From positions 1 through 64,000 of the IMG/VR virus record IMGVR_UViG_3300022743_000002: a DNA stretch of 64,000 bases. One strand, 5' to 3'. Source of the DNA: a virus. Positions 4,372 through 42,925 of this stretch are shown piece after piece. The translations under genes were made by a program, and so were the position numbers. The notes under the pieces are model-generated. The model had not been told where the DNA came from, ran no database searches, and saw only the letters and a list, made by a program, of their open reading frames with translations. Position 1 is the stretch's first letter. Each line of letters begins with the position of its first letter.

Positions 4372-4387
4372 ATTTTGGCGTCACGAC
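4372..4387 (-). promoter_or_regulatory. Late-promoter motif for tail operon
   Basis: GTCGTGAC-GC-CAAAAT-N7-ATG. Confidence 0.75.
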
Positions 4388-14928: not shown

Positions 14929-15549
14929 TTACTGCATGACGCGGGCGACGATGCTCTGGGGAATGGCTTCACCGCGGTTCAAGCAGCTTTCAGCCACGGC
15001 AATGTCTGTACCGGACAGGCGTCCTTCTTTCTGCGCGGCCAAAGCCTTCGCAAAAAACACATCGTGGCTCACGCCTGCCGGATCCGACTTCGCCATGGTG
15101 CCGGCACCAGGCTCCGGTTTCTCGACCACGGACACGACGGCTTTGCGGCCGCGGCCTTCTCCGGACAGCTTCTTGACGCTGTCGCTGAGCGACTTGATCA
15201 TCTCAGCCTGGCCTTTGATCAAGTCAATCGCGGATGCCATAGCCTTAGCCATGGTAGCCTCGCCCTTCTCGACCCGATCCTGCAGCGACTTCACCAAATC
15301 GGTGCCGTCCTGAGCTTCAACTTCCGTGCCGTCGTCAAGCGTAAACTTGAACGACTTTGCCATGGGCTTGTCGTCGCCGTCGTCGTCGCCGACAACATCA
15401 TCTGCATCACCATCCGAGCCGCCTTCCGCAGCGGCAGCTTGGATTTTTGATTCATCCTTACCGTCATCCGCCGGGAGCGCCTTGGTCATTGTTTCCTGAT
15501 CCGCACTGAGCTGACCCAGCTCAGCCATCAGCTTTTCAAATTGACTCAT
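14929..15549 (-). CDS. Putative scaffold protein
   Basis: 206 aa, acidic and helical, between protease and capsid; at least seven hydrophobic-x-K|S/A motifs (MTKA, MAKS, LVKS, MAKA, MIKS, MAKS, FAKA). Confidence 0.75.
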   Translation of the reverse strand: MSQFEKLMAELGQLSADQETMTKALPADDGKDESKIQAAAAEGGSDGDADDVVGDDDGDDKPMAKSFKFTLDDGTEVEAQDGTDLVKSLQDRVEKGEATMAKAMASAIDLIKGQAEMIKSLSDSVKKLSGEGRGRKAVVSVVEKPEPGAGTMAKSDPAGVSHDVFFAKALAAQKEGRLSGTDIAVAESCLNRGEAIPQSIVARVMQ

Positions 15550-16457
15550 GACTTACTCCGTTTGTTGAGACCATTTTTCAAATCGCGCATGAAGCGCTCC
15601 ACCCACTCAGCAGCCCTATCTGGCGCCATACTGAATTGCTTGGCGGCTTGCTCGACGAGCTCGCGGGCGCCAGGGTTCTTGCCAATGCCGCCGGTGCGCA
15701 TGCGCTCCGCCAGCTTGTTCCTAAAATCAAAATAGCTATGAATTGCGCCATCCAATGACTGCACGCGCATAGCCGAGCCGCCGGCAAGGGCGGCTGAATC
15801 TGTTCCGTATCCAGCTTCGAGTGCCTTTGCGAAGTCGAGGCCATCCGCCGACCAGGACTTCGCGAACGCGCCAAGGGGGATAGTTGCGCAGGTTCCAACG
15901 TGCTGATTTACCGGCGTTTTGGAAACGCCTATATTGTTCCAGCGGACCTTGCTCACGATCGCCTTGCGCATGCCGGTCTTAGCGTCGGCGACGACGGACT
16001 TTGCCAGGACGCTGCCGCCCACCGATGGATACCAGCGCTGGGGCGGGCTCACGTCAGTGATGGAAGACCAGAAGTCATTGGCGCGCTCAGCAGCCGGGCC
16101 GACGCCAGAATAAATCTCGGCCTTGACGAACGTCGTGCCACCTTTCTGGCGCACATCCAGCGGCCGACCGATTTCATACAGTTCGCAACCAGGTATGCCG
16201 GGCCTGCCTTGGGCTGCGTTTGGCTTACCAATCAGCGTGTAGTGATCAATGTCGATATTGCCGTAGCGTTTGAAATACTCCGCACTCTCAGCCAAGGCCT
16301 TCGCAGCGATCACCTCGTCCTGCTGATCAACCCCCTCGTTGCTGGCCTCAAAATAGACGATGCGTTGCCCGCCATCCATTTGGGGCGTTGCTTTGAGCAT
16401 CGAGCCGATACTCAGGAATTCAGGGATGCCAGCAAGGAGCTGATCGTCAGTTCTCAT
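15546..16457 (-). CDS. Prohead protease
   Basis: 303 aa; ASNEGVDQQDE, GNIDIDH, SVGG and TPVN motifs. Confidence 0.85.
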   Translation of the reverse strand: MRTDDQLLAGIPEFLSIGSMLKATPQMDGGQRIVYFEASNEGVDQQDEVIAAKALAESAEYFKRYGNIDIDHYTLIGKPNAAQGRPGIPGCELYEIGRPLDVRQKGGTTFVKAEIYSGVGPAAERANDFWSSITDVSPPQRWYPSVGGSVLAKSVVADAKTGMRKAIVSKVRWNNIGVSKTPVNQHVGTCATIPLGAFAKSWSADGLDFAKALEAGYGTDSAALAGGSAMRVQSLDGAIHSYFDFRNKLAERMRTGGIGKNPGARELVEQAAKQFSMAPDRAAEWVERFMRDLKNGLNKRSKS

Positions 16458-20000: not shown

Positions 20001-21589
20001 TCCATGCCGATCTTGCCGAGCGAGCCCTGCCACTTGTCTTTGGCGCCCTGCTTCATGGCAGTCACCAGAGCCGCATTGGCTTCCATCTCTCCCAGTGCCT
20101 GCCCCAGTATCTTTTGCGCGTCACCAACGGCGCGTCGCCGGCGGCCATTCATCTCCTGGGCGACCTGCAGGTCGGAGCCGTTTGCGGCCTCGCCCAGTTC
20201 AACCTCTTTTGCGGCGTCCATGAGCTCGCGGGCCTCGCCAAGCGCCTCGGCGCTGGTCTCCATGTAGTGGTGGAGGTGGAAATCCTGCACGCCTTCAGTG
20301 ATGCGCTCGACGTCTGCGGGCATGTCGGCGTGGATCCGGCGTGCCAGCACCTGAGCTGCACCGGCAATGCCAAGCACGTCCACCACGGAGCGGTCCACCA
20401 GGGCCTCGCCACCGACGGCAAGCGCCAGGCTGTTAATGCTGTTGTACGCGCCTATGCCGATATGCTTGCCCAGTGTTTCCTCGGGCTTTTCGCCGGCTAG
20501 GCGTTTGAACTCTGACAGGAACGCCAGTGTCTGTGCGGTGCGCAGGTCGTTGTTAAGGTCCTCGGTGATCTTGGCGTCATCGTCGGGGCTGGCGGTGTAC
20601 TCCAGCACGAACGCCTTGGGCTCGGATGGCGACTTGTCTATTTCGGCAGCTGCGGCGCGGGCTTTTTGTTGCACCTGCTTGAGCTTTTTAGCCGCCTTCA
20701 GGAGCTCGACGGCTTCCTTTGCCGACGCCAGCGTCTTTTCAGCCTTTGGCGCAGCGGGCTCGCGGATGCCTTCCAGTTCGGCCTTGACCAATTTGGCGGT
20801 CTCGCCACGTTGGACGGCAGCTTGCCGTTGCGCGTCGGTCAGGTTTGCGCGCTTCGCTTCCTTCGCTTTGTCGGCCTCCGCCTTCAATTCGTCTGCAGTC
20901 AAGCCGGATGCCTCAGCTCGGCCCTTGAAGTCCTGGCTGAAACCAAGTCCGCCCGGGTTGCTGTCGATTGGCGCCAAGTCCTGAACGCTCAGGGTCTCGG
21001 GGTCCTTGGCGTCTAGCGGCACCTCTCCTATTCCGCCTTCCATGCGCGCAGCGTGGTCAGCGACCAGCATTTGGCGCTGCAGGTCAACGGCCTGCACGGC
21101 CTGCTGCATGATGGCGCGGTGGTGTTTGTCGCGCATCTTTGCCTGGGCGGCTTCGCTCAGGTTCGCGTAGTCGGCCTCCGGAAACTCCAGCTTGCCCTTA
21201 TCCCAGCCCATGGTGGTCGCCACGGTCTGCACAAACTCGCGCTCGTGCTGACGCTGCTGGTCGCGAAGCGCCTGTTTAGCCTTATTCTTGGACTCCAGGA
21301 TGCCGGCTTCTTTGTCGGCGGCGCGCTGAGCCTTCTTTTCCTCGGCCTTGGATTTGCGACGGTCCTCGGCTTCCTTCTTGTACTCGGACTCCTTGCGGAC
21401 GCCGCGCAGCTTCAGGTAGTTCAGCTTGCCACCGGCGCCGCCTATCACATGGGCGCTGCCGTCCGCCTGTGGTTGGATTAAGACGGCTTGGCCATCAGAG
21501 CCAGGGCCGTTGGGGTGAACGGTGATCCAGCGGGCGCCATCCGGGATTGAGGCTTTCAGAAACAAAATTGGGCGGTCTTTTGGCAGCAT
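17033..21589 (-). CDS. Large SF2 (SNF2-like) helicase polyvalent protein
   Basis: 1518 aa; FGTGSGKS, DESQ, ASGDP, QRNGRIFRTGQ; N-terminal PILFLK|A tag. Confidence 0.85.
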   Translation of the reverse strand: MLPKDRPILFLKASIPDGARWITVHPNGPGSDGQAVLIQPQADGSAHVIGGAGGKLNYLKLRGVRKESEYKKEAEDRRKSKAEEKKAQRAADKEAGILESKNKAKQALRDQQRQHEREFVQTVATTMGWDKGKLEFPEADYANLSEAAQAKMRDKHHRAIMQQAVQAVDLQRQMLVADHAARMEGGIGEVPLDAKDPETLSVQDLAPIDSNPGGLGFSQDFKGRAEASGLTADELKAEADKAKEAKRANLTDAQRQAAVQRGETAKLVKAELEGIREPAAPKAEKTLASAKEAVELLKAAKKLKQVQQKARAAAAEIDKSPSEPKAFVLEYTASPDDDAKITEDLNNDLRTAQTLAFLSEFKRLAGEKPEETLGKHIGIGAYNSINSLALAVGGEALVDRSVVDVLGIAGAAQVLARRIHADMPADVERITEGVQDFHLHHYMETSAEALGEARELMDAAKEVELGEAANGSDLQVAQEMNGRRRRAVGDAQKILGQALGEMEANAALVTAMKQGAKDKWQGSLGKIGMESAIQRVRAIGLQRGDYTLDTVAGDTFLTINAAGMDRLAKPIARDDVAQVQRNLSIIRGDEDEDGWLPLGVANRPDLAMDVKPGVAPRLAEPFTPGDDLEQSLRDYIGGRAADGDAPGDIVADIQSAAFFEKVGFDKAEQYRAALDAVAPLKDAKGKQRRSEALAGAFDGYADVFVQNRYGGERSTLNRQSFSVDQTSVDALHRALSEHPDGVAAFKQIGELTSQDQRTLREHFYRNVAKESPEQGALRAEVERLEANEPEKETTDMFGDTTVNPEWSDWSTQRNEAAAKANAAGLDWPKYVEAMHGHEKAYEAIQDLIRSNVGKAFADNHNKLNPGKPLKLGRSVIRNNLNHLDATDPAAREERQARERELVDSLRERSQGRYAAGSVSDKLDAARDQDEAFNQAQMGFFGSDDAPVEKEATQADLKGDERHSLGHVAERQIAGMMGVVGKNFKPGQPTKLWAPTMSGGKNAARQRLVKMVDANKRVVAAFGTGSGKSLLQLASFTHLHQQGKAKRGMFLVPSIVQGQFSGEALRYLEPGKFNWHIEPGASRDERIKAYKNPDHHFCVMTHQSFRDDMMHLGATHSGISESEMADRLNSMTDAERKDWMGGIMEREGINFDYLTTDESQYTLNRQGKENSGLANVVDALSAHTPYYVTASGDPVKNDASEVYDLMRKMDPARYNDRGAFMRRYGADTLASKDALKREMARYVYPSKIDPDVTADRKESKVALSGGQQQALAELDKHFTSARIARMEGKVDVAAMKAISPASFDGVAEADHDEVAKGLQQSLGIMRSSAVQRVINTHPDNPLIDDLVKKAADRKGKPGVVFAHNREAVRMITERLQKEGHRVVTITGSDSGKEKERKRLMFNPEQGEAQADILVASDAGATGMNIQRGEWLYQHDTPQTAMTHAQRNGRIFRTGQKNNVELIDGIADHPEVHKARERLQRKYGLRELMTSPMEGLDDTGVAHYIKQRQVAEKDAPGSLF

Positions 21590-28572: not shown

Positions 28573-30903
28573 TCAGCGCGGCGCCAGGAATACTACAGGC
28601 ATAGACTTTGTAATGTCTGGATTAGAGCCATCGAACTCGCCATTGTTGCCGATAGCCGATTTGATCTGCGTCGGATCAAAAACGACGTACTCAGCGGGGT
28701 AGTCACCGTTCTGGATGTGCCCGTAGCTCAAAATTACACCGTCGTGGCCCTTGGCGGCCAGTTCCTGCGTCCACTTCGCGGCAGCTTCATTGTCACCGCG
28801 GCGCTCGGCGAGCATCAGCCGCTGCTTGTCTTCCAGTGTGGCCTGATACGGGTTCTTTAGGCTCAGGTAGACAGGCATCACGTTGGGTGACGCGCCAGCC
28901 TTGAGGTTGGTGTAGCTGTTGGAGATTTCGGTGTCGTTGGTGAAGTAGAAGCCCTGACCGAGCCAGCCGTTGTCTTTTTTGTTGGCGTGGCCGTGCTTGA
29001 ACTCAGCGAAGTCATCAGCGGTTCCGTGATAAACGATCAACGGCTTACCATTCCCGTCAACCACTTTACTGCCTCGAAACCAGGTCTTGAACTTCGCGGT
29101 TTCGGTTGGATGCTGGAGCGCGGCCGGCTTCGGGGCCAGTCCAGCAGCCACAGCCTGCAACGCCTTCCTGGGGTCTACAAACTCCAATTTGGTGCCCATG
29201 TCGGTGTGACCGACGCGGATCAGGCTCTTGATGTGCGGGCGCACGGCGTGTGACGTGATGCCGAACACCTCGGCGGCCGCTGGAATGAACCACTTGAGCC
29301 CAGATGAGCCAGCTTTCAGGCCTAGCCGATTTAGGTCCATATCCGTGACTTCGCCGCCGGCCATCAACCGATCGCGCATGGCGGCCAGCGCGGTGGCGCG
29401 ATCGGCCTTGTTTTTGGCGGAACTCTCGCGGTTCGATAGCCACTGCTTGCCCTGCGCCGCAGCATCCTCCGGCTTCGCGTGGTACGCGCTCAAAATATCT
29501 TTGCCCGGGAGCTCGACCGCGTAGTGGCCAGCGATTAGCCCTTTGCCGCGCGACCAGGTTGTGCCCTCGGGGAAATCGGACAGCAGGTGGTCGTGCTCGT
29601 GCTCGCCCGCGGGCTCGGTGTGCTGGAGCTCGTCGGCGAACATATCTGGCGTGTGAGTTACCGCGTCCTTGCCGTTCAGCGGGCTCGGCCCCATCGGTTT
29701 GCCGCTCATGGGGCCGCCAAATAGGCTCATTTGCCCGGGCGTAGCATGCGGGCGCGCAGATCGACCCTGATACCCAGCGACGTTCACCAGACGACCGCCA
29801 CGCAGGTACGGGCCAACATGGGATTTGAAGAACAAGACCATGCTCTTGGCGATGGTGGCGCCGCCGGCCGTACCTCGGCTTTCCACGCCGTTGTCGTCGT
29901 TGAACTTCTTGGCGACCTTGATCAACTCCATCGCCGGCATGCCGATCTTGATGATGGGTAGCTGCTTGCCTTCGAGCGCAGCGACGGCCCAGCGGTGGTG
30001 ACCGTCGAGCACGCGATTGTCGGACGACACCAGAATGCGGGTTTTGGCGTCGTACCGGCCCGCCCGCGTCTCGTCCGTCAGGTAGTCCATATTGGCGGCG
30101 TTGTAGGTGCCCTGGGTCGGCTTCAGTTCGGACGGGTTCACCGTGGCCTCGGTCACGGAAACACCTGACTCACGCAGCCCGTTCAAGAACTTTTCTTTCA
30201 CGCCGCTCGGAACCTGGGGCATGTCATCCCGGCGGATGCCAAGCGACGGCTTGAACATTTCCGCGTACTGCTGGTGCCGCTGGCGCTTGTCTTCGTGGGC
30301 CTGCACCACAGTTCCATCGGAGCGGGTGTAGGTATCGACGTGGGCCTTCAGCAGCAGCGCCTTGATCATGGCAGGCTTGTCGATCGTGGCGCGCACCTTG
30401 GAAACGAACTCGGCCACCGGCATGGCGGTGATGGGGCCCAGGAAACGCGGGTCGGTGTAGTTGGCCAGAAATGCCTGCTTGGCGTCTTCCTCGCTATCGA
30501 ACCCGGCCATGGCCTTGTCTTCATCGTAGCGGGTCCAGTCGCCATAGGTGTTCTGGTGCACCACGTAGACCATGGGCGCGTCCGGGTTCGGGCCCATGTA
30601 GATATCGACCGGGTCACCATCCACGCCCATGGATCCGACCACCTCGCCGTAGTCGTAGGACATGCGGATTTCCCAGGCCTCGCCGGACCGGTTCACGCCG
30701 CGGCGCACGGATCCCGCCGGATTCTCAATTGCCAGCGTCAGTCCCTGCCATTCGATGCGTGGCTTCTTGTAGGCGCCCTCGCCGGCCTGGGCGGCACTGG
30801 GCTCGCCGGGGTTTCGGCGAACTTCGCCTTCCCCCAGGTCGGCAGGCTTGGCGGCGCCGCTCATTGCCTGTGTGACGGGGTGGGATTTGAGGAAAACGAT
30901 CAC
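28573..30903 (-). CDS. Polyvalent protein: inorganic pyrophosphatase-like, ParB-like and ADP-ribosyltransferase (ART-PolyVal-like) domains
   Basis: 776 aa; DYG..DGDPVD..DEDK; LKPTQ..VLDGHHRW; VYHGT..GFYFT..LKNP..HDGVI..EYVVFDPTQIKS. Confidence 0.85.
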   Translation of the reverse strand: MIVFLKSHPVTQAMSGAAKPADLGEGEVRRNPGEPSAAQAGEGAYKKPRIEWQGLTLAIENPAGSVRRGVNRSGEAWEIRMSYDYGEVVGSMGVDGDPVDIYMGPNPDAPMVYVVHQNTYGDWTRYDEDKAMAGFDSEEDAKQAFLANYTDPRFLGPITAMPVAEFVSKVRATIDKPAMIKALLLKAHVDTYTRSDGTVVQAHEDKRQRHQQYAEMFKPSLGIRRDDMPQVPSGVKEKFLNGLRESGVSVTEATVNPSELKPTQGTYNAANMDYLTDETRAGRYDAKTRILVSSDNRVLDGHHRWAVAALEGKQLPIIKIGMPAMELIKVAKKFNDDNGVESRGTAGGATIAKSMVLFFKSHVGPYLRGGRLVNVAGYQGRSARPHATPGQMSLFGGPMSGKPMGPSPLNGKDAVTHTPDMFADELQHTEPAGEHEHDHLLSDFPEGTTWSRGKGLIAGHYAVELPGKDILSAYHAKPEDAAAQGKQWLSNRESSAKNKADRATALAAMRDRLMAGGEVTDMDLNRLGLKAGSSGLKWFIPAAAEVFGITSHAVRPHIKSLIRVGHTDMGTKLEFVDPRKALQAVAAGLAPKPAALQHPTETAKFKTWFRGSKVVDGNGKPLIVYHGTADDFAEFKHGHANKKDNGWLGQGFYFTNDTEISNSYTNLKAGASPNVMPVYLSLKNPYQATLEDKQRLMLAERRGDNEAAAKWTQELAAKGHDGVILSYGHIQNGDYPAEYVVFDPTQIKSAIGNNGEFDGSNPDITKSMPVVFLAPR

Positions 30904-32060
30904 TTTGGTTCCTTGCGCGGCATGGCCGCCAGCTTGTCACGCATCCATTGCCCGAACTCCACATCGTCACCTGGCCGGTCCTGAATCGTCGGAACCCAGC
31001 GCCCACGGCAATGCGGGTGCACCAGGCCGACTGGCACCTGCCACATCTCCTCGGGCTCGCGCTCCTTGAACACGGACCCCACGCGCTTGCGTGGGCTGGC
31101 GCTTCGCCCAACGTTGGTTTTGCCCGGCCAAATCATGGTCTCCGGGTCCTTGTCCTCGCGGGCGGCGTCCACGACTTCCATGACGCGGCCGTCGATTTTG
31201 CGACAGAACGCACAGGCGTTTTTGTACTGCTCGACACGCTTGACCTTGGTGCCCATGGGTAGAGACGACACGTAGCCGGCGGTCTGTGCTTCGCCGGCCT
31301 CGGTCACGGCGATCCGCCGCCAGTCGCGGTTCAGCGTGCCGAACTGGTCGAGGAGCTTGGTCTCCAGACTCGACGACGGTGCCGGCAGTCCGAGCTCGCG
31401 CTCCGTGACGTGCTCGGCAATGACGCCACGCATGCGGTGCCGGACGTCATTGGCGATGTTGCGGACATTCTCGGCACAGCGGGTTTCAGCGTGAGCCATG
31501 GTAGCGCGCTGTGCGACGGTGCCGCCAAACGCCGCAATGGCCTCAGCGGCCGTGCTCGGCATGGCCGCCAGCAGCACGTCGGCCTGCTTGGCGTCGGCGG
31601 CCTCCATGTTGGCCTGCACGCGCCCCATGAGGCTGGCACGTGTCGACAACCAGTCGGCCTCGGTGCGCATGTCGTCTGCAGGCAGGTAGCGCTGCACCGT
31701 CGCGTCGACGGCAAGCATGTGGTCTTCCAGCGTCCAATCGGACGGCGGGAGGTGTTCGAGGTAGATATGGACCAGAGAGAGCTCGCTTTGCGTCCATCGC
31801 TCCATCATGCCGCCAGGGCGAATGATGCGCTCGCCGGGCTTGTGTCGGACGCCGGCGGTCCAGGCCTGAATCTCGGTGCGCACGGCGTCAAGGCGATCGA
31901 GACCGCGCTGCGTGAAAAGCTCGACCAGGCGACGCAGCAACGGGCTATCCATTGGCGCCCAGATGCCGTCGTCGTGGTCATGCGTGGACTTGCACAGGAA
32001 CTCCAGAGCGTCGTTTGTGACGCGCTCACCAAGTTCAATTAAATCGACGAACAAAGACAT
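30900..32060 (-). CDS. MuF-like head morphogenesis protein
   Basis: 386 aa; RIAVTE, ACAFC and HPHCRG motifs. Confidence 0.8.
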   Translation of the reverse strand: MSLFVDLIELGERVTNDALEFLCKSTHDHDDGIWAPMDSPLLRRLVELFTQRGLDRLDAVRTEIQAWTAGVRHKPGERIIRPGGMMERWTQSELSLVHIYLEHLPPSDWTLEDHMLAVDATVQRYLPADDMRTEADWLSTRASLMGRVQANMEAADAKQADVLLAAMPSTAAEAIAAFGGTVAQRATMAHAETRCAENVRNIANDVRHRMRGVIAEHVTERELGLPAPSSSLETKLLDQFGTLNRDWRRIAVTEAGEAQTAGYVSSLPMGTKVKRVEQYKNACAFCRKIDGRVMEVVDAAREDKDPETMIWPGKTNVGRSASPRKRVGSVFKEREPEEMWQVPVGLVHPHCRGRWVPTIQDRPGDDVEFGQWMRDKLAAMPRKEPK

Positions 32061-32066
32061 GCTGGC

Positions 32067-32082
32067 AGTATGCGATCACGAC
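32067..32082 (-). promoter_or_regulatory. Late-promoter motif for MuF
   Basis: GTCGTGAT-CG-CATACT-N6-ATG. Confidence 0.8.
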
Positions 32083-32252
32083 GAAAAGCCGGAGCGGTTT
32101 CCAGCCCCGGCGATCCGGCGCGACCCTGGCACGGCGCGTAAACGCCGGAAAGGAACCGACCTCCAACCCTCAATGGACGTCGGCGCCATGTCGCGCTGCG
32201 GCCTTTATATCCCGAATGAACCGCAAACGGTCACGCTCAAGCCAACACTAAC
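32083..32252 (-). ncRNA. Candidate structured ncRNA B (~170 nt, late promoter)
   Basis: Own copy of the promoter motif with no ATG at +1; nested stems; ends in a GC hairpin plus T4. Confidence 0.55.
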
Positions 32253-32258
32253 AATGGC

Positions 32259-32274
32259 AGTGTGCAGTCACGAC
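32259..32274 (-). promoter_or_regulatory. Late-promoter motif with no downstream start codon
   Basis: GTCGTGAC-TG-CACACT-N6-G. Confidence 0.7.
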
Positions 32275-32300
32275 AAAAAAACCCGGCACAAGGCCGGGTT
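32275..32300 (-). terminator. Rho-independent terminator
   Basis: AACCCGGC-CTTGT-GCCGGGTT followed by a T run. Confidence 0.85.
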
Positions 32301-32305
32301 AAAAG

Positions 32306-32570
32306 CTCCGACCCAGGGAGGAAAGGCCGGCCACTTGCGTGGGGGTTGATGGCGGCCGAAGGTGATCACCCTGCTATCGACCGGGAACCCCCAGCCGTTC
32401 GGCATCTTCGCCATCAAGAATGAGACCTTACCACTGGCTGCATCCGCGTTTAAGTAGATACACCATAATCTCATACTTGATGACCCTGCAAGCAGGCATC
32501 AAGGGCACCTAACGGGTACCAGTCGACGTGATTAAGTGCCGTCGCACGGAGTTGTCTACTCAGGTCCGAA
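32306..32570 (-). ncRNA. Candidate structured ncRNA A (~265 nt)
   Basis: Multiple 8-12 bp stems and an imperfect 5'/3' closing stem, directly followed by a terminator; no credible ORF. Confidence 0.55.
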
Positions 32571-32592
32571 AACTAATTCTAATCACAAATAA

Positions 32593-33189
32593 CTATATTT
32601 GTGCAATGCCGCGCAAATATATTTCATCAAAAATAGCATCGAGTACGGGGTGACGCTGGCTCATGGCCGTTACCACCTGGCGCGCATCGCTGTAATACTT
32701 GCGCTTTCTGTCTGCGCCCCAAGCCGGTGGCATAACCAGCAGGTCCCGCAAGTTAGCAGTCTTGTCTGCCACCTTCACGGCGGCCGCCCTGGGGCTCATG
32801 GTTTGCGCGTGGGCTACCTGCATCGCCAGCTTGTCTTCGGGCTTCACGTCTTCGTTCGTGAGCTCCGCCACGGCGTCGGCAACGTCATGACCAAATTCAG
32901 CCACCAGGTTTTCGTGGCTGACGCCGCAGTCCTCAATGGTGTCGTGCAGCAGAGCCGTGATCAGCGTGGCGTCATCGGTGACGCCAGCCTCATCGTGCAG
33001 GATTCGGGCGACTGCGCGCGGGTGTTCGATGTAGGGAACCTTGGGCGCGCCAGGCTGGCCCTTGCGGTACTGGCCGGTGTGGGCCCGCTCCGCGAACTTG
33101 TCGGCGCGCCTGACGTGAGGGGAAACGTAAACGCCATTGCGGCGGGTATGGCCCGCCACATGAACCGTTGATTTGAACAAGAGGATCAC
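32593..33189 (-). CDS. HD-domain (p)ppGpp hydrolase-like protein (SAH/Mesh1 family)
   Basis: AHTGQYRK, PYIEHP, ALLHDTIED, VKVADKTANLRD; N-terminal ILLFK|S tag. Confidence 0.88.
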   Translation of the reverse strand: MILLFKSTVHVAGHTRRNGVYVSPHVRRADKFAERAHTGQYRKGQPGAPKVPYIEHPRAVARILHDEAGVTDDATLITALLHDTIEDCGVSHENLVAEFGHDVADAVAELTNEDVKPEDKLAMQVAHAQTMSPRAAAVKVADKTANLRDLLVMPPAWGADRKRKYYSDARQVVTAMSQRHPVLDAIFDEIYLRGIAQI

Positions 33190-33398: not shown

Positions 33399-34980
33399 GC
33401 CCCTTCAAATTCCACAAGATCATTCTAGGCGTTGGCATAGATTTAGTCAAATTTGATGATTCATTCTGTTGTTGTTTCTCACCAGCCTTAGCTTTCTCCC
33501 AGGCATCACCGTAGAGAGACTCCTGCTCTTTCATGGCGGCGGCGTGCGTCTCACGGTCCTTGGCGTCCCATTTGCTTGTATCTGAGCCAACGCCATTCTC
33601 GCGATATTTACCTTCTATTGATCGCGTTGTCTCGTATGGCTTGTGGCCTTTTTCCTTGGCCAGCGTCATTGGCTTCACGTGCACCTGCATCTCGGCGAGC
33701 ATGCCGTTGGGTAGCCGCATGATCATGTTGATATCGCGGTAGCCGCCCGGCAATGGCTTGACCAGGTTGTTCTTGGGCTTCTGCGCCAGCTCGATGCCGG
33801 CCGCCTTGAGCTCGGCGAGCACCTTCGGGATTTGGGTGACGCCAGGCACTGCGATTGTGGCGCGCACCATGTCGCGCAGCTGCGACCAGTCGCCGTCGTA
33901 GTCCTGGGCGACCTTCTCCTTGGCGCGCTTCTCGCCCTTGAGCGGGCCCATGAACAGGTAGCCGCGATCGTCGTCCCAGTGCTCGGGCAGCATGTAGTCG
34001 GTGTCGGACAGGTCGGCCGGATTGCGGCCTTCCTTCTCGGCGTTGATCTTCTCCTCGTGCTGGGCGTGGTCCAGCGACTGCGGGCGCTTGCCGGTCACCA
34101 GACCAAGATTCTGCGCGACCTTGCTGAGCATATCGCTGTACTGCTTCAGGCCTTCCTCGCCCTTGGACTTCAGTTCATCCCATGACTGGACAGGCTGATT
34201 GACCTTGGTCGGCAGCTTATCGAGCTCTGAGGTATCGAATAGCGCGCGAGCGATCCCCTCGGCGCCGTCGGGGGCCGGCTTTGGCGTTCCCGGCGCGTCT
34301 ACCTGGTTGGGTTGCGTCTCCTGGTGCGGACTCGCGTCCGGCTTACCTTCGCCGCCCCAGTGGTGGGTAATTTTGTCATGCGTTACAAGGTGTTGGCCAC
34401 CGGCGCTGTCCCGGACACGCACGCCGTCCTTGCCGGATGCCGTTACCTCGCCGTGCCCCTTGTGCTCGCCATTGGCAAAGCCGACGTGCTGGCCGCGCTG
34501 GGCCGGCGGGCTACCCTGGTCAGTGCTGACCCACTTGGTAGTTTGAACGCCATTCTTATCAGTGATTACCTTCTTTTGCAGACCGGGTGCACCAGCGTAG
34601 GTTCCCGGCGCTGACGCCTTCATAAATAGCATGACGGGCCGCGTGTGCCCCATTGATTTAGCGACCATTGGGTCTTCCTTGGATTCGTTTGGTATTGCCA
34701 CAAATCGACGCCGGCCGGACTTGTCCTCGACCAGCATGCCATCCTCTCCTTGATCGACGACGGCGTATTTTTGCAGGGCCCGGGTCTTGTGACCAAGGAC
34801 CTTGTCCCATCGGACCGGGTGATGGCCGCCGTCAATCTCGACGGTTACGCCGTGCTTTCCGTGCGCCTTGACCAAGCCGGTGCGCGGTTGTCCGCGGTGG
34901 TGCACATACAGATGGTCGCCCACCTCGACGTCGTGGCGCGGCTCCGGCTCCGGGCGCGGCTTAGGCTTCTGGTAGGTCAT
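33382..34980 (-). CDS. RelA/SpoT-type small alarmone synthetase domain protein with N-terminal SH3/KOW-like modules
   Basis: GPLKGEKRAKEK, LRDMVRAT, GGYRDIN and AEMQVH synthetase motifs. Confidence 0.85.
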   Translation of the reverse strand: MTYQKPKPRPEPEPRHDVEVGDHLYVHHRGQPRTGLVKAHGKHGVTVEIDGGHHPVRWDKVLGHKTRALQKYAVVDQGEDGMLVEDKSGRRRFVAIPNESKEDPMVAKSMGHTRPVMLFMKASAPGTYAGAPGLQKKVITDKNGVQTTKWVSTDQGSPPAQRGQHVGFANGEHKGHGEVTASGKDGVRVRDSAGGQHLVTHDKITHHWGGEGKPDASPHQETQPNQVDAPGTPKPAPDGAEGIARALFDTSELDKLPTKVNQPVQSWDELKSKGEEGLKQYSDMLSKVAQNLGLVTGKRPQSLDHAQHEEKINAEKEGRNPADLSDTDYMLPEHWDDDRGYLFMGPLKGEKRAKEKVAQDYDGDWSQLRDMVRATIAVPGVTQIPKVLAELKAAGIELAQKPKNNLVKPLPGGYRDINMIMRLPNGMLAEMQVHVKPMTLAKEKGHKPYETTRSIEGKYRENGVGSDTSKWDAKDRETHAAAMKEQESLYGDAWEKAKAGEKQQQNESSNLTKSMPTPRMILWNLKGRENGN

Positions 34981-36722
34981 GATTGAATTCTGAACACCGG
35001 CAGGCCAAACGACTTGGCTATGTCCTGCTGATCATCTCCGGGCCTCTCCGTAGCCCCAGCATCATCGGGCGCCCCGAAGTCTTGCCCGCCCTGATCGTCA
35101 CCAAAATCCTGATCGCCGCCGCCGTCATCGCCGTCATCGGTCGACTGCCCAGGCTCAGCGCCAGGCTGGCCGTAGTCCTCTTGCTGCGGCATTGCCTCTT
35201 GTTGCCAGGCGCCAACCAGCGAGGGATTCAATGGAGCGTCACCCCACTTACCGTCGGCCTTGTCGACGCCGTCCTCGGCTCGGATCTCGTTGACGGTGCG
35301 CGTCATTTTTTTGCGCTCCCAGATCGTCTTTTCGTCTTCCTCGTCCAGGCCGGTGAACTGGAATTCGTACTTGTCACTGAACTCGCCAATGACGTACTCG
35401 CTCAGCGTGGACTCGAAATAGCTCAGCAGGGGGCGCAGGCCCTTGTCTTTGCTGTTGACGATCTTCTCCTCGGTGTCGTCTCCGCTCAGCGATGACGTTC
35501 CGGACGTGAAGCTCTCAAAATTGATTTCCTCGGGCGCAATGCCGTAGATCGCGCAGATGATGGATGACAAGAACGTCATCCACTTGGCGAACATGATTTC
35601 GTTGGCGGCGTTACCGAATTCCGTGAAGTCGGCTTTCGACTCCTGATCCTTGGACACCATGACGGGCAGCGTCCAGGCGTTATTGACGCCCTTGACCATG
35701 CCGTTCCAGTAGCGCTTAAAGGCGGCAACATCCTCGTCGCTGTAGTTTCCGTACAGGTTCAGCATGCCCTTGGGTATGGCGTTGCTGTCGAAAAATTTGG
35801 TGTTGTAGGTGAAGGCGTTCAGAAAGCCCGTCACCACGCGGATAAGCAGTTCCGTCTCGGACAGTCCGTAGCCGCCAGCAAGCACGTCGGTGCGTGGGTT
35901 GCGCGGCACATACACCAGGTCGTCATAGGTGTAGGCGCTGCGGATCTGGCCTTGCACGACCTGGAGGGCGAAAATCTCGTCTTCGCCTTGGTAGCCGTCT
36001 TCGCTGCACAACCGAATGGTGGCTCCGTCGACGGCGTACATGCCGTCCAGGCCGAGCGACTTGTCGCGCTTCCACTCGGTCTCAATCGGTGCGCTGTCCA
36101 TGGTGAGGCTGTCGCGCACCAGCTTCATCATGAAGTTTTGGAAGTTGTCGCGCTTCAGGCGCAGGCGCTGGCGGGGCTTGGTCTCCCAGCCGCTGTTGGT
36201 CACGAATGACTCCAGCAGCTTAATGGTGGCCTTTTCGTTTTCGTCGATGTTCTCCAGCTTTTCCTTGCTGGCGATCCTGAAACCCGACCCCTTGCCACCC
36301 TTCTGCGGCCGGCAAAACCTGGCCACCTGGCGCTGGCGCGTCATTATGACGGCGTTCAAAATCGGCGTTTGGTCCACCATGGCGCGCATGGCATCAAACG
36401 TGAATTGGCCGGGTCGCTCGAACCAGTCGCCGTTGATGTTGATCTGCAGGTCGTCCAGCCAGACCGACTGCATGCCGGGCTTCTTGTCTTTGATGGCATT
36501 CGACGGGAACGGGATGACGTTCTGCTTTTGCAGCGACTTCGCCATGGCCTGATCGTCCAGGTCACGGTTGATGTAGTCAATGATGGGCTGAATGTTCGCC
36601 GCCGGTATCAGGTCCGACAACGCCTTGGGCATGCTGGATTTTTGAAGCTCCGCCATGGCTTCAGTCCGCTCGTCGGCGGGCGCACGTGGATCAGCGAGTA
36701 TGGCGCGGGCAGCATCAGTCAT
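34977..36722 (-). CDS. Portal protein
   Basis: 581 aa; DGATIRL, GYGLSETE, PKGML, ICAIYGIAPEEIN, KGLRPLL and TVNEIRA portal motifs. Confidence 0.92.
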   Translation of the reverse strand: MTDAARAILADPRAPADERTEAMAELQKSSMPKALSDLIPAANIQPIIDYINRDLDDQAMAKSLQKQNVIPFPSNAIKDKKPGMQSVWLDDLQININGDWFERPGQFTFDAMRAMVDQTPILNAVIMTRQRQVARFCRPQKGGKGSGFRIASKEKLENIDENEKATIKLLESFVTNSGWETKPRQRLRLKRDNFQNFMMKLVRDSLTMDSAPIETEWKRDKSLGLDGMYAVDGATIRLCSEDGYQGEDEIFALQVVQGQIRSAYTYDDLVYVPRNPRTDVLAGGYGLSETELLIRVVTGFLNAFTYNTKFFDSNAIPKGMLNLYGNYSDEDVAAFKRYWNGMVKGVNNAWTLPVMVSKDQESKADFTEFGNAANEIMFAKWMTFLSSIICAIYGIAPEEINFESFTSGTSSLSGDDTEEKIVNSKDKGLRPLLSYFESTLSEYVIGEFSDKYEFQFTGLDEEDEKTIWERKKMTRTVNEIRAEDGVDKADGKWGDAPLNPSLVGAWQQEAMPQQEDYGQPGAEPGQSTDDGDDGGGDQDFGDDQGGQDFGAPDDAGATERPGDDQQDIAKSFGLPVFRIQS

Positions 36723-40795: not shown

Positions 40796-40811
40796 ATTTT
40801 GCGATCACGAC
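40796..40811 (-). promoter_or_regulatory. Late-promoter motif overlapping the TerL stop codon
   Basis: GTCGTGAT-CG-CAAAAT-N6-ATG. Confidence 0.8.
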
Positions 40812-42925
40812 CTACGCGCCACAAAAAGCACGCAGCTGACGTCGCGCACGCCCACCTGAAGCTGGCGGTCCTCGCACATGCCGGTATCAGCATTGCGTGC
40901 CGTGCACCGCCCGCATACGCCATCCGGCAGGGTTTCCAGCATGGTTGTGACCGCCGTCGGCAGTCCGTGCATGTTCATGCTGGCCGCTTTGTCTTTGAGC
41001 TCTTGCTGCGCGCTACCCCCGTCCGGAATAATGAAGGTCGCGGTTCCGTGCGACCGGGACCAGGCGACGTCGCAAAGCATGTTGGCATAGCTAAAGTGCG
41101 GGTCGATCCCGACCTTCTTCACGCTGCGCTTGTACTGGTTCGTCTCGTCGTCCTTCTCAGCCACCAACGCCGTTTTGGTGAAGTGGTGAAATGCCCGCGG
41201 CAACACCGCCATGGTCTGGGTCTTGCCCTTCTCGATCACGTCCTGCACCAGGCCTTGCGGATCCGGGAACAGGCACAGCTGGCCAGTCAGGCGCGCCATA
41301 CTGACCTGCATGCACTTGTACTGGTCCATGCGCAGCGTGTAGCGGTCGCGCTCATTTTCATCGGTCCGGCGATCGCTTACGTCTAACCTGGGTGCGTCGC
41401 CCCACAGGACCATACCCTCCTTGACCTGACCGAAGCTGTCGCAAATAAACACCCGACCCTTGTGGCGATTTGCGAAGCGCTTGGCGTCGTTGTAGTTCGG
41501 GTTGATTTCGACAACGCACACCGCGACGCCAAAAGCGTCCATGAGCTCGTCGCAGCGTCCAAACGGGTCAGCGTCGTAGATTTCCTCTACGTGCACCACA
41601 GCCTGGCGCCCGTCCGGCAGTCGCTCCTTGATAACGGCGACGTTGAAGTTGCCCATTTGGTCGATACCCATGAAGCAACTGCGACCGCGGGTCTTCCACT
41701 GCACCCCGGCGGCCTTGCCGGCCTCCACGCACGCCGCCAAGTGCTCCAGGGTGACTGGCACCTGACTGGGGTCGACATAGGGCTTGCCGCGCTTGCGATT
41801 GAAAAAGTTCTTCATATCGCTGGCGGTCTGGTACGCCGTGATGATTTCATCGGCGCTGATCGTTGGGCTCAGGTACTGCGGGAAGTGGATCGACCGGATC
41901 CGCAGCCGGCGCTCCTTGAGTGGCACGCCCACCTCGGGCCCGCGATCACGTTCCGGGTGCTCGGCTCGCCACTCGCCGGCCTGGGTGTCGTCAATCCAGT
42001 GACCGTTGGGGCAGACGTAGCGGTATATTTCCCGCTGCTTGTCCCACTTAATGCAGTCCGGGAAATAGTCGTCCAGGGGCTTGCTGGTGCCGCACGTCGG
42101 GCATGTCGTGTGAAACTGGTGCTTGGTGCCCTTCTTGTACCAAAAGTCGATATCGGCGTCGGGCCAGTTTGCGGTAGACCCCATGAGCATGAAGCGGACC
42201 GTGCTGGCGCTGACGCGCTCGTAGGTCTTCTCGATTTGCTCCAGCGTCATCTCCTGCACCTCGTCGAAGCTCAGGACGTCCATGGGAATGGACTCCGTCG
42301 TCGCGCGGCCGCTGGTCCAGCTGAAGATGAAAAGCGCCTGGTCGATGCGGCGCCGGTTGACGTTGCCCTCGCCCTGCTTGCGGCCGCTGCCGTCTGGTGC
42401 GTCCTGGGTCATGAGCTCGTGCACGCTGGGCACGCTGCGCACGATCGGCATGAAGCGCTCGCTCGATTTCAGGCCGGCCAGATTCATGTCGGGCAGGAAC
42501 ATGCCGACGATGCAGGGACCGAACTTTATGCCGAGGTAGATCGTCGCCAGCATCTCCATGACGGTGAAGCCAACCTGGGCGCACTTCATGAGCACCAGGA
42601 CGTACCGGTAGGCTTCCTCGCGCGTGCTTGGTATCTGGTCGTAGATCCACGCCATAGCCGGGCGGTCGTCGAGGGTGAAGCGCTTGCCGTCCACCTTGAG
42701 GCCGTCGCTGCCGTCGGGCTTTGTGCCGCGGCCCAAGTGCTCGCACCACTCGCGGAATGACTGGCCGTCCGGGATGACTTCCTTTTCGTTGATGCGAAAC
42801 CCGGTCTTGGCTTCCAGCTGGGCAATCGCTTGCGCCAGCCCACCATTGAAGTCGGGCATGCGGCGACGGTTGCCGCTCCCGGCGCCGGTAGGCTTGTAGG
42901 CGCGGCCGTTAGCTGCGAAGGCCAT
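40805..42925 (-). CDS. Terminase large subunit (GpA-like)
   Basis: MKCAQVGFT, SSERFMP, LSFDEV, CPTCG Zn finger, MGIDQ nuclease motif, DPHFSYA. Confidence 0.88.
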   Translation of the reverse strand: MAFAANGRAYKPTGAGSGNRRRMPDFNGGLAQAIAQLEAKTGFRINEKEVIPDGQSFREWCEHLGRGTKPDGSDGLKVDGKRFTLDDRPAMAWIYDQIPSTREEAYRYVLVLMKCAQVGFTVMEMLATIYLGIKFGPCIVGMFLPDMNLAGLKSSERFMPIVRSVPSVHELMTQDAPDGSGRKQGEGNVNRRRIDQALFIFSWTSGRATTESIPMDVLSFDEVQEMTLEQIEKTYERVSASTVRFMLMGSTANWPDADIDFWYKKGTKHQFHTTCPTCGTSKPLDDYFPDCIKWDKQREIYRYVCPNGHWIDDTQAGEWRAEHPERDRGPEVGVPLKERRLRIRSIHFPQYLSPTISADEIITAYQTASDMKNFFNRKRGKPYVDPSQVPVTLEHLAACVEAGKAAGVQWKTRGRSCFMGIDQMGNFNVAVIKERLPDGRQAVVHVEEIYDADPFGRCDELMDAFGVAVCVVEINPNYNDAKRFANRHKGRVFICDSFGQVKEGMVLWGDAPRLDVSDRRTDENERDRYTLRMDQYKCMQVSMARLTGQLCLFPDPQGLVQDVIEKGKTQTMAVLPRAFHHFTKTALVAEKDDETNQYKRSVKKVGIDPHFSYANMLCDVAWSRSHGTATFIIPDGGSAQQELKDKAASMNMHGLPTAVTTMLETLPDGVCGRCTARNADTGMCEDRQLQVGVRDVSCVLFVARRS

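Follow-up and report, generated by a model that had tools for sequence, protein, structure and literature searches.

To our knowledge, only few phage-encoded structured RNAs have proven folds. The 6S RNA of phage lambda is a 194-nt PR'-tR' transcript made from the late promoter at the head of the late (morphogenesis) region; it is a by-product of Q antitermination, and the lambda late genes do not have a downstream promoter of their own. The pRNA of phi29 (RF00044) belongs to protein-primed phages with a gp16 ATPase. Other systems that bear comparison are the small RNAs with a CU-rich seed such as anti-hemB (RF02837), the morons of phages and the late promoters of phage P1, whose late genes require the activator Lpa (PMC8198154).

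Here we have analysed an RNA, named RNA B, encoded in the head module of a freshwater phage. The conclusion that RNA B is a stand-alone non-coding RNA gene of a new family, with a predicted promoter and a predicted terminator, is well supported by comparison of its relatives, because all 19 members are flanked by promoter boxes, 32 of 43 base pairs are compensatory, G-U pairs fix the strand and no ORF is conserved, and also because a 5' hairpin lies at the predicted +1 in most relatives. A stand-alone RNA gene had already been proposed in the first-pass annotation, which was made from the single sequence, and the box-flanked family, the covariation, the invariant G-U pairs and the lack of a conserved ORF now support this proposal.

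Genomic setting and promoter box

The window, meaning the whole stretch of 64,000 nucleotides that was analysed, represents the first 64 kb of an 87.75-kb IMG/VR record from freshwater with an estimated completeness of 95%. The phage belongs to a clade of roughly 90-kb phages with cultured members on Bordetella, Pseudomonas, Aeromonas, Yersinia and E. coli. All genes around RNA B are located on the minus strand, and their coordinates are collected in Table 1 together with the elements of RNA B itself.

Table 1: Genes, predicted promoters and predicted structural elements at the RNA B locus (window positions).
Feature	Position	Strand	Remarks
Large terminase	40805-42925	-	GpA-type
Portal	34977-36722	-	Pfam search
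532-aa gene	between portal and HD_4 hydrolase in listed gene order	-
HD_4 hydrolase	32593-33189	-	Pfam HD_4
530-nt gap	between HD_4 hydrolase and 386-aa gene		holds RNA A and RNA B
RNA B promoter copy	32252..32273	-	TCGTGA 32268-32273, 3 nt, CACACT 32259-32264, 6 nt, predicted +1 G at 32252
RNA B, predicted 170-nt transcript	32083..32252	-	covariance model R1, 155.8 bits
P0, variable 5' hairpin	32241..32258	-	GCCA...UGGC, straddling +1
Invariant ACCG ahead of P1	32228-32231	-
P1 hairpin	32198..32224	-	GCGGUU / 15-nt loop CAUUCGGGAUAUAAA / GGCCGC; nearly invariant in 14 members
Core three-way-junction domain	32118..32196	-
P2	32190-32196 / 32118-32124	-
Bulged A	32189	-
P2a	32184-32188 / 32127-32131	-	UGGCG/UGCCA
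GG bulge	32125-32126	-	opposite bulged A, between P2 and P2a
P3 hairpin	32156..32183	-	CCGACGUCC / loop AUUGAGGGUU / GGAGGUCGG; 8/9 pairs compensatory
J3/4	32147..32155	-	predicted unpaired pyrimidine-rich strand UUCCUUUCC
P4 hairpin	32133..32146	-	GGCGU / UUAC / GCGCC; 6/6 pairs compensatory
Terminal hairpin	32088-32111	-	GCCGGGGCUGGAAACCGCUCCGGC; 8-10 pairs, terminator scan
U-tract	32083-32087	-	UUUUC; next box one base beyond
Second promoter copy	32058..32081	-	ATG of 386-aa gene at its +1
386-aa head-module gene	30900-32060	-	ATG at +1 of second promoter copy
Polyvalent InPase/ART protein gene (cargo)	after 386-aa gene	-	Pfam search
2202-aa methylase-helicase, then 1518-aa helicase		-
Head protease	15546-16457	-	PHROG search

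The 386-aa gene has no Shine–Dalgarno (SD) sequence ahead of its ATG. Its earlier label 'MuF' agrees with the place after the portal and with the 'minor head protein' annotations on distant Thermus phage matches, but not with the database searches, as Phage_Mu_F was not matched in Pfam at E values up to 10 (one unrelated weak match was obtained) and the PHROG and PDB searches gave zero matches. C283, C286, H348 and C351 of the protein, which lie in CxFC and HPxCRGRW contexts, are invariant across seven homologues. MuF-family proteins carry the motif HPxCRC, which is similar to HPxCRGRW.

RNA B is preceded by a box of the pattern TCGTGA-N3-nAnnnT, which occurs on the minus strand in nine copies in the window and in 13 copies in the 87.75-kb genome. 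TCGTGA-N15-ATG was observed seven times in the window against 0.69 expected, a tenfold enrichment, and all seven copies are on the minus strand at the ATG of a long ORF without an SD sequence. In the -10-like hexamer the A at -11 and the T at -7 are invariant; judged from the sequence, the geometry would be that of a sigma-70-type -10 box without a -35 box, with a predicted start 7 nt past the hexamer. From the genes that it precedes we infer that the box is a phage-specific late-type promoter starting RNA B at about 32252, and this undescribed promoter appears to drive the late genes of the clade, often as leaderless messages. RNA B would then probably be made and accumulate late, together with the head and cargo proteins.

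At its predicted +1 RNA B reads G-U-U and has no start codon. The first-pass annotation had described this promoter copy as the only one without an ATG at +1; the missing ATG was confirmed, and the claim of uniqueness is nearly right within the window, the one exception being the copy at 4386, where the ATG is at +2. Beyond the window the copies at genome positions 78900, 78395 and 71539 have leaders, the one at 78900 with an SD sequence, and the box is therefore independent of an ATG. The four copies at 78900, 78395, 71539 and 82999 comprise one AGGAG leader, one 3-nt leader, one 26-nt leader and one ATG at +1, and the 26-nt leader precedes a small membrane-protein-like ORF.

Both boxes flanking RNA B (32063-32082 and 32255-32274) match the 20-nt pattern GTCGTGAYNGCAYACTGCCA exactly, far past the box consensus, which suggests a duplication or a gene conversion between the two promoters. 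The two flanking copies of the relatives L003 and L004 are unlike each other outside the consensus. The box is kept in every member of the RNA B family, mostly with CACACT or GACACT, it stands on each side of RNA B in 19/19 members, and it is also kept before the homologue of the 386-aa gene in the cultured relatives Bordetella phage PHB04 and Pseudomonas phage Dolphis.

The RNA B family, its fold and its genomic slot

In order to collect relatives of RNA B we searched IMG/VR and metagenome contigs with the downstream protein and the most conserved RNA motif, followed by a covariance model for the divergent ones. This gave 18 further distinct homologues on viral and metagenome contigs, so that the family comprises 19 members with the window copy. 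All of them are found at the same place just upstream of the 386-aa gene, with one copy per genome, and the covariance model R1 has RNA B as its single match in the 87.75-kb genome. A model of the core alone matched 13 of 46 distinct loci with the 386-aa gene, always directly upstream of it. Cultured phages and plasmids searched by blastn did not match RNA B, and a pattern scan of 185,579 reference genomes gave chance matches only. The same holds for a permissive cmscan of the 216-nt stretch and the homologue L023 against Rfam 15 (at most 14 bits), and an Rfam scan of 5 kb gave zero matches within 32083-32252.

The conserved fold has up to seven helices. P3 and P4 are the two hairpins of a three-way junction closed by P2 and P2a, and this core domain is the sole part common to all 19 members. 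In 16 sequences nine of the 12 pairs of P2 and P2a are compensatory and 97–100% of the cells are paired. Three members (L077, L078 and L100) form a variant subfamily with another 5' domain in place of P1 and without P4, which keeps P2, P2a, P3, the GG(G) bulge and the strand CCCUCCA. P1 has a 6-bp stem with two invariant U-G pairs, which would read A-C on the opposite strand, and its loop (CAUUCGGGAnnUAAA) is among the conserved unpaired parts of the family. Since several pairs are U-G in all or most sequences, the transcribed strand is therefore the minus strand. In eight of ten close relatives the predicted +1 G is the first base of the variable hairpin P0, which frequently has a GNRA loop; this supports the start site, and P0 is dispensable as it is missing from L064. 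An optional hairpin P5 before the terminal hairpin is found in seven members (CCGC/GCGG changes to CCAC/GUGG in L071). A closing helix of ACCG with the strand after P2 was also considered and was rejected as inconsistent across the sequences.

The folding energy of the single sequence (-77.3 kcal/mol, z = -2.0 versus shuffles) is modest and the opposite strand behaves much alike; the real support for the fold therefore comes from covariation in the relatives, a check already named in the first-pass annotation. In 16 model-aligned sequences 96.5% of the cells pair, compared with 32–53% when the partners are slid by one to three columns, and 32 of 43 pairs change on both sides; 0/500 shuffles reach the observed values. 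As this alignment is fitted to the model, which flatters the figures, ten homologues were also aligned unfitted with MAFFT and folded with RNAalifold, resulting in identical helices with 23/43 compensatory pairs. Four of the five helices seen earlier in the single sequence hold in the comparative fold, namely TGCGGTT/GGCCGCA (P1), GCGCGAC/GTCGCGC (P2), CCGACGTCC/GGAGGTCGG (P3) and the terminal GCCGGGGC/GCTCCGGC with its TTTT, which abuts the promoter of the next gene. The fifth, ATGGCG/CGCCGT, is not a conserved pairing and is replaced by P2a (UGGCG/UGCCA) and the separate hairpin P4 (GGCGU/GCGCC).

The terminal hairpin shows compensatory changes in 7 of 10 pairs (16 sequences) on an unusually conserved stem sequence and is followed by UUUU, a covarying intrinsic terminator as expected for an sRNA gene, so that the 3' end of RNA B would probably lie at about 32083-32087. 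The U-tract is absent from three of 16 members (L023, L113 and L077). A scan for alternative pairings competing with the terminator gave only 4-6-bp options on invariant G-rich strands, and such anti-terminator or alternative folds were rejected as by eye they are not kept in the divergent L075.

A coding function of RNA B was rejected as well. The ORFs of 11 homologues differ in frame, start and length, so that no frame is conserved, and the 37-codon ORF of the window has no counterpart in frame or sequence among the relatives. Its ATG reads ACG in four of ten relatives, with the pairing partner changing along from U-A to C-G, and indels among the relatives have lengths that are not multiples of three.

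RNA B is absent from PHB04, which carries the same alarmone, head and cargo genes, and is therefore accessory in the clade; it is also absent from Dolphis, where the alarmone and cargo genes are absent too. The site of RNA B is a general insertion slot, which is occupied by RNA A, by a different RNA in relatives and by a GIY-YIG endonuclease gene in one relative. In the latter (L026:9835-10610) an insert of about 780 nt sits exactly between the RNA B hairpin and the next promoter and carries the endonuclease gene on the reverse strand (Pfam E = 9.6e-08), which resembles a free-standing homing endonuclease. Both RNA B and the next promoter are intact in L026 despite the insert.

The neighbouring RNA A (window 32273-32605, minus strand) ends in the motif CCUCCCUG plus a terminator and matches the Rfam family anti-hemB, but its 40.5 bits fall short of the gathering score (49.5). 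Upstream of RNA A stands a sigma-70-like promoter (TGCACA-18-TAGAAT, 32576-32605), in contrast to the phage box of RNA B, and the two neighbouring RNAs therefore seem to be on different promoter types. In relatives without RNA B another conserved structured stretch of about 200–300 nt fills the slot upstream of the 386-aa homologue; it was found at L060:3750-3975 (Dolphis) and in L008, L009, L085, L097, L102 and L108. This stretch has a hairpin with the loop GGGGCUAA and a motif GCGGAGrrGCGCA, and is similar in its 5' part to the beginning of RNA A (CCUGAGUA). It looks like a leader in L085, L097 and L102, where it stands behind a TCGTGA box and the gene is not preceded by a second one.

Possible roles of RNA B

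A CU-rich run is present at J3/4 in all 19 members, including the variant subfamily without P1 and P4, and reads UCUCCU, CUCCU, CCUUUCCU or CCCUCCA in the relatives. With a predicted unpaired probability of 0.89 in the window and 0.2–0.9 elsewhere, this strand would be the most persistent single-stranded feature of the family, and its sequence looks anti-SD-like. Because it is found at the same structural place in 19/19 members, even without P1 and P4, and also because the neighbouring RNA A has the CCUCCCUG motif with its sub-gathering match to anti-hemB, we tentatively favour RNA B as a trans-acting riboregulator showing a conserved pyrimidine-rich, anti-SD-like strand, at a confidence clearly below even. 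The covarying helices P2, P2a, P3 and P4 might then form a rigid scaffold exposing J3/4, joined in the main subfamily by the invariant P1 loop, and both could base-pair with certain early phage or host messages at their purine-rich ribosome-binding regions. Stability would come from the terminal hairpin and its U tail, which might also serve as a handle for a chaperone. Late messages beginning at their own AUG would be exempt as they lack a purine-rich region. Internal late genes, for example a 776-aa gene after the head gene, use SD-like sequences, so that the phage would be hurt by a general block of SD sequences, which makes a global anti-SD role unlikely. An anti-SD-like RNA from a late-type promoter would link late transcription to translation control.

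The searches for targets do not single out a message. When the P1 loop, J3/4 and the P3 loop were scanned for duplexes with all start regions in the phage genome, the scores were not above those of shuffled controls. J3/4 pairs with the SD sequence of the 776-aa gene over 8 bp perfectly in the window and over 7 bp in L071; its specificity for this downstream gene was rejected as own-genome pairs are not better than cross-genome pairs (permutation p = 0.47). As antisense targets of the P1 loop we found only its own antisense strand plus a 10-bp match within noise. This 10-bp complement, including one G-U, is located at window 21555-21570 on the minus strand, about 20–35 nt inside the leaderless message of the 1518-aa helicase, and its pairing energy (-17.1 kcal/mol) does not go beyond the tail that 11,696 windows would give. 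A pairing of the end of the P1 loop (AAAGGCC) with the first codons of the head gene was rejected since by eye it occurs in some genomes but is mismatched, without compensation, in others.

The riboregulator reading is weakened because the target scans are null, the pairing of the CU strand with SD sequences is non-specific and the U-tract is missing in three members. Furthermore, the CU strand lies inside a junction with moderate predicted accessibility and could equally be a tertiary partner of G-rich loops. A riboregulator is also disfavoured by the degree of structural conservation, which is seen more often in RNAs that bind a protein or a ligand than in base-pairing sRNAs. A protein-binding or assembly role is nearly as likely: RNA B might sequester or scaffold a late protein of the phage or a host factor (e.g. 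S1, Hfq, ProQ, CsrA or RNase E), or it could be a cofactor of head assembly or cargo loading or be packaged itself; a packaged, structural or packaging-related RNA had been suggested in the first-pass annotation. The complex junction, the invariant P1 loop, the A and GG bulges and the conserved loop of the terminal hairpin would suit such a binding partner, and the terminal hairpin is kept where the U-tract is lost, which suggests that it is more than a terminator. RNA B also stands invariably where the head/cargo gene block begins, and the polyvalent cargo gene follows the head gene in most RNA B-positive loci, but this link follows phylogeny and is inseparable from it. Against a need for RNA B in assembly within the clade stand PHB04, with the same head and cargo genes, and Dolphis, without cargo genes, both of which manage without RNA B; the GpA-type large terminase does not need a packaging RNA of the phi29 type, and the argument for a packaging-related role is the location, which is a general insertion slot. 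If RNA B does bind a protein, it would provide an entry into head assembly or cargo loading. We consider it highly improbable that RNA B is loaded into the capsid with the adjacent cargo enzymes, or is a cofactor loading them; if capsid loading were true, it would be a virion-borne RNA of a tailed dsDNA phage, which could act in the next host at injection.

Less probable than either of these, and in our opinion unlikely, is a role in cis, in which RNA B would be an attenuator, insulator or leader that meters transcription into the head and cargo genes, or would modulate the abutting promoter. A cis role would be in line with its invariable place next to the same gene on the upstream side, where the hairpin touches the promoter of that gene, with the weak or absent U-tract of three members, which makes some read-through likely, and with the leader-type layouts with the other RNA and no second box that exist in the clade (L085, L097 and L102). 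RNA B itself does not have the layout of a leader, as a second TCGTGA box intervenes between its hairpin and the ATG in 19/19 members. The AUG of the 386-aa gene lacks an SD sequence and would be buried in a read-through transcript, and such messages should therefore translate poorly. A conserved anti-terminator pairing was not found, the candidates being short and failing by eye in L075, and in L026 RNA B is intact though the homing endonuclease gene parts it from the promoter. A riboswitch-like RNA sensing a ligand, for example the alarmones of the synthetase/hydrolase pair just upstream, is very improbable. The compact multi-helix fold with conserved junction nucleotides would be compatible with a sensor, and the HD hydrolase (HD_4) with its synthetase partner is found upstream in 6/6 close loci with visible flank. 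Nevertheless Rfam gives no match to ppGpp/PRPP (ykkC) or any other riboswitch family, an expression platform coupled to the gene is absent, and PHB04 has the alarmone module without RNA B. In L113 RNA B directly follows a short synthetase-like gene fragment with no hydrolase between, and in L075 and L076 the hydrolase was not seen in 1.5 kb upstream. A link between RNA B and the alarmone module was rejected as it is inseparable from phylogeny.

Comparison with known systems

As a new family whose comparative support is unusually clean and whose gene anatomy is clear, RNA B is a candidate for Rfam. Like the phi29 pRNA it is a structured phage RNA of about 170 nt for which a connection to head and packaging was considered. 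A phi29-type pRNA was rejected, as RNA B has no RF00044 or other Rfam match, the phage has a GpA-type large terminase instead of a gp16-type ATPase together with a standard portal, and close relatives assemble without RNA B.

The box before RNA B resembles the late promoters of P1 in having a -10 box without a -35 box and a conserved element some 20 nt before the start, and in standing ahead of morphogenesis, cargo (Dar-like) and lysis genes. The upstream element is the hexamer TCGTGA here and an inverted repeat in P1, and many starts here coincide with an ATG unlike in P1, which serves as a model for the promoter only; an activator was not identified here. As in lambda 6S, the RNA would be a short terminated transcript from a late promoter ahead of the morphogenesis genes, here of about 170–200 nt as predicted from sequence; in contrast to lambda, the terminator of RNA B is followed by a second promoter box in 19/19 members, and the RNA has a covarying multi-helix fold.

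With anti-hemB and other sRNAs with a CU-rich seed RNA B shares the predicted unpaired anti-SD-like pyrimidine motif, the GC-rich terminator hairpin with a U tail and the organisation as a stand-alone gene. A shortened copy of anti-hemB forms the tail of the neighbouring RNA A, whereas RNA B itself has no match; its CU strand is part of a three-way junction instead of a linker or loop, RNA B exceeds these sRNAs in length and by far in structure, and its promoter is the phage box and not of the sigma-70 type. Finally, like a phage moron, RNA B would be transcribed as a self-contained unit; it lies between two conserved genes of the head module, in a slot open to other inserts. It differs from morons in that its product is an RNA and in that it stands behind the phage's own late-type box, so that lytic rather than prophage expression is expected.
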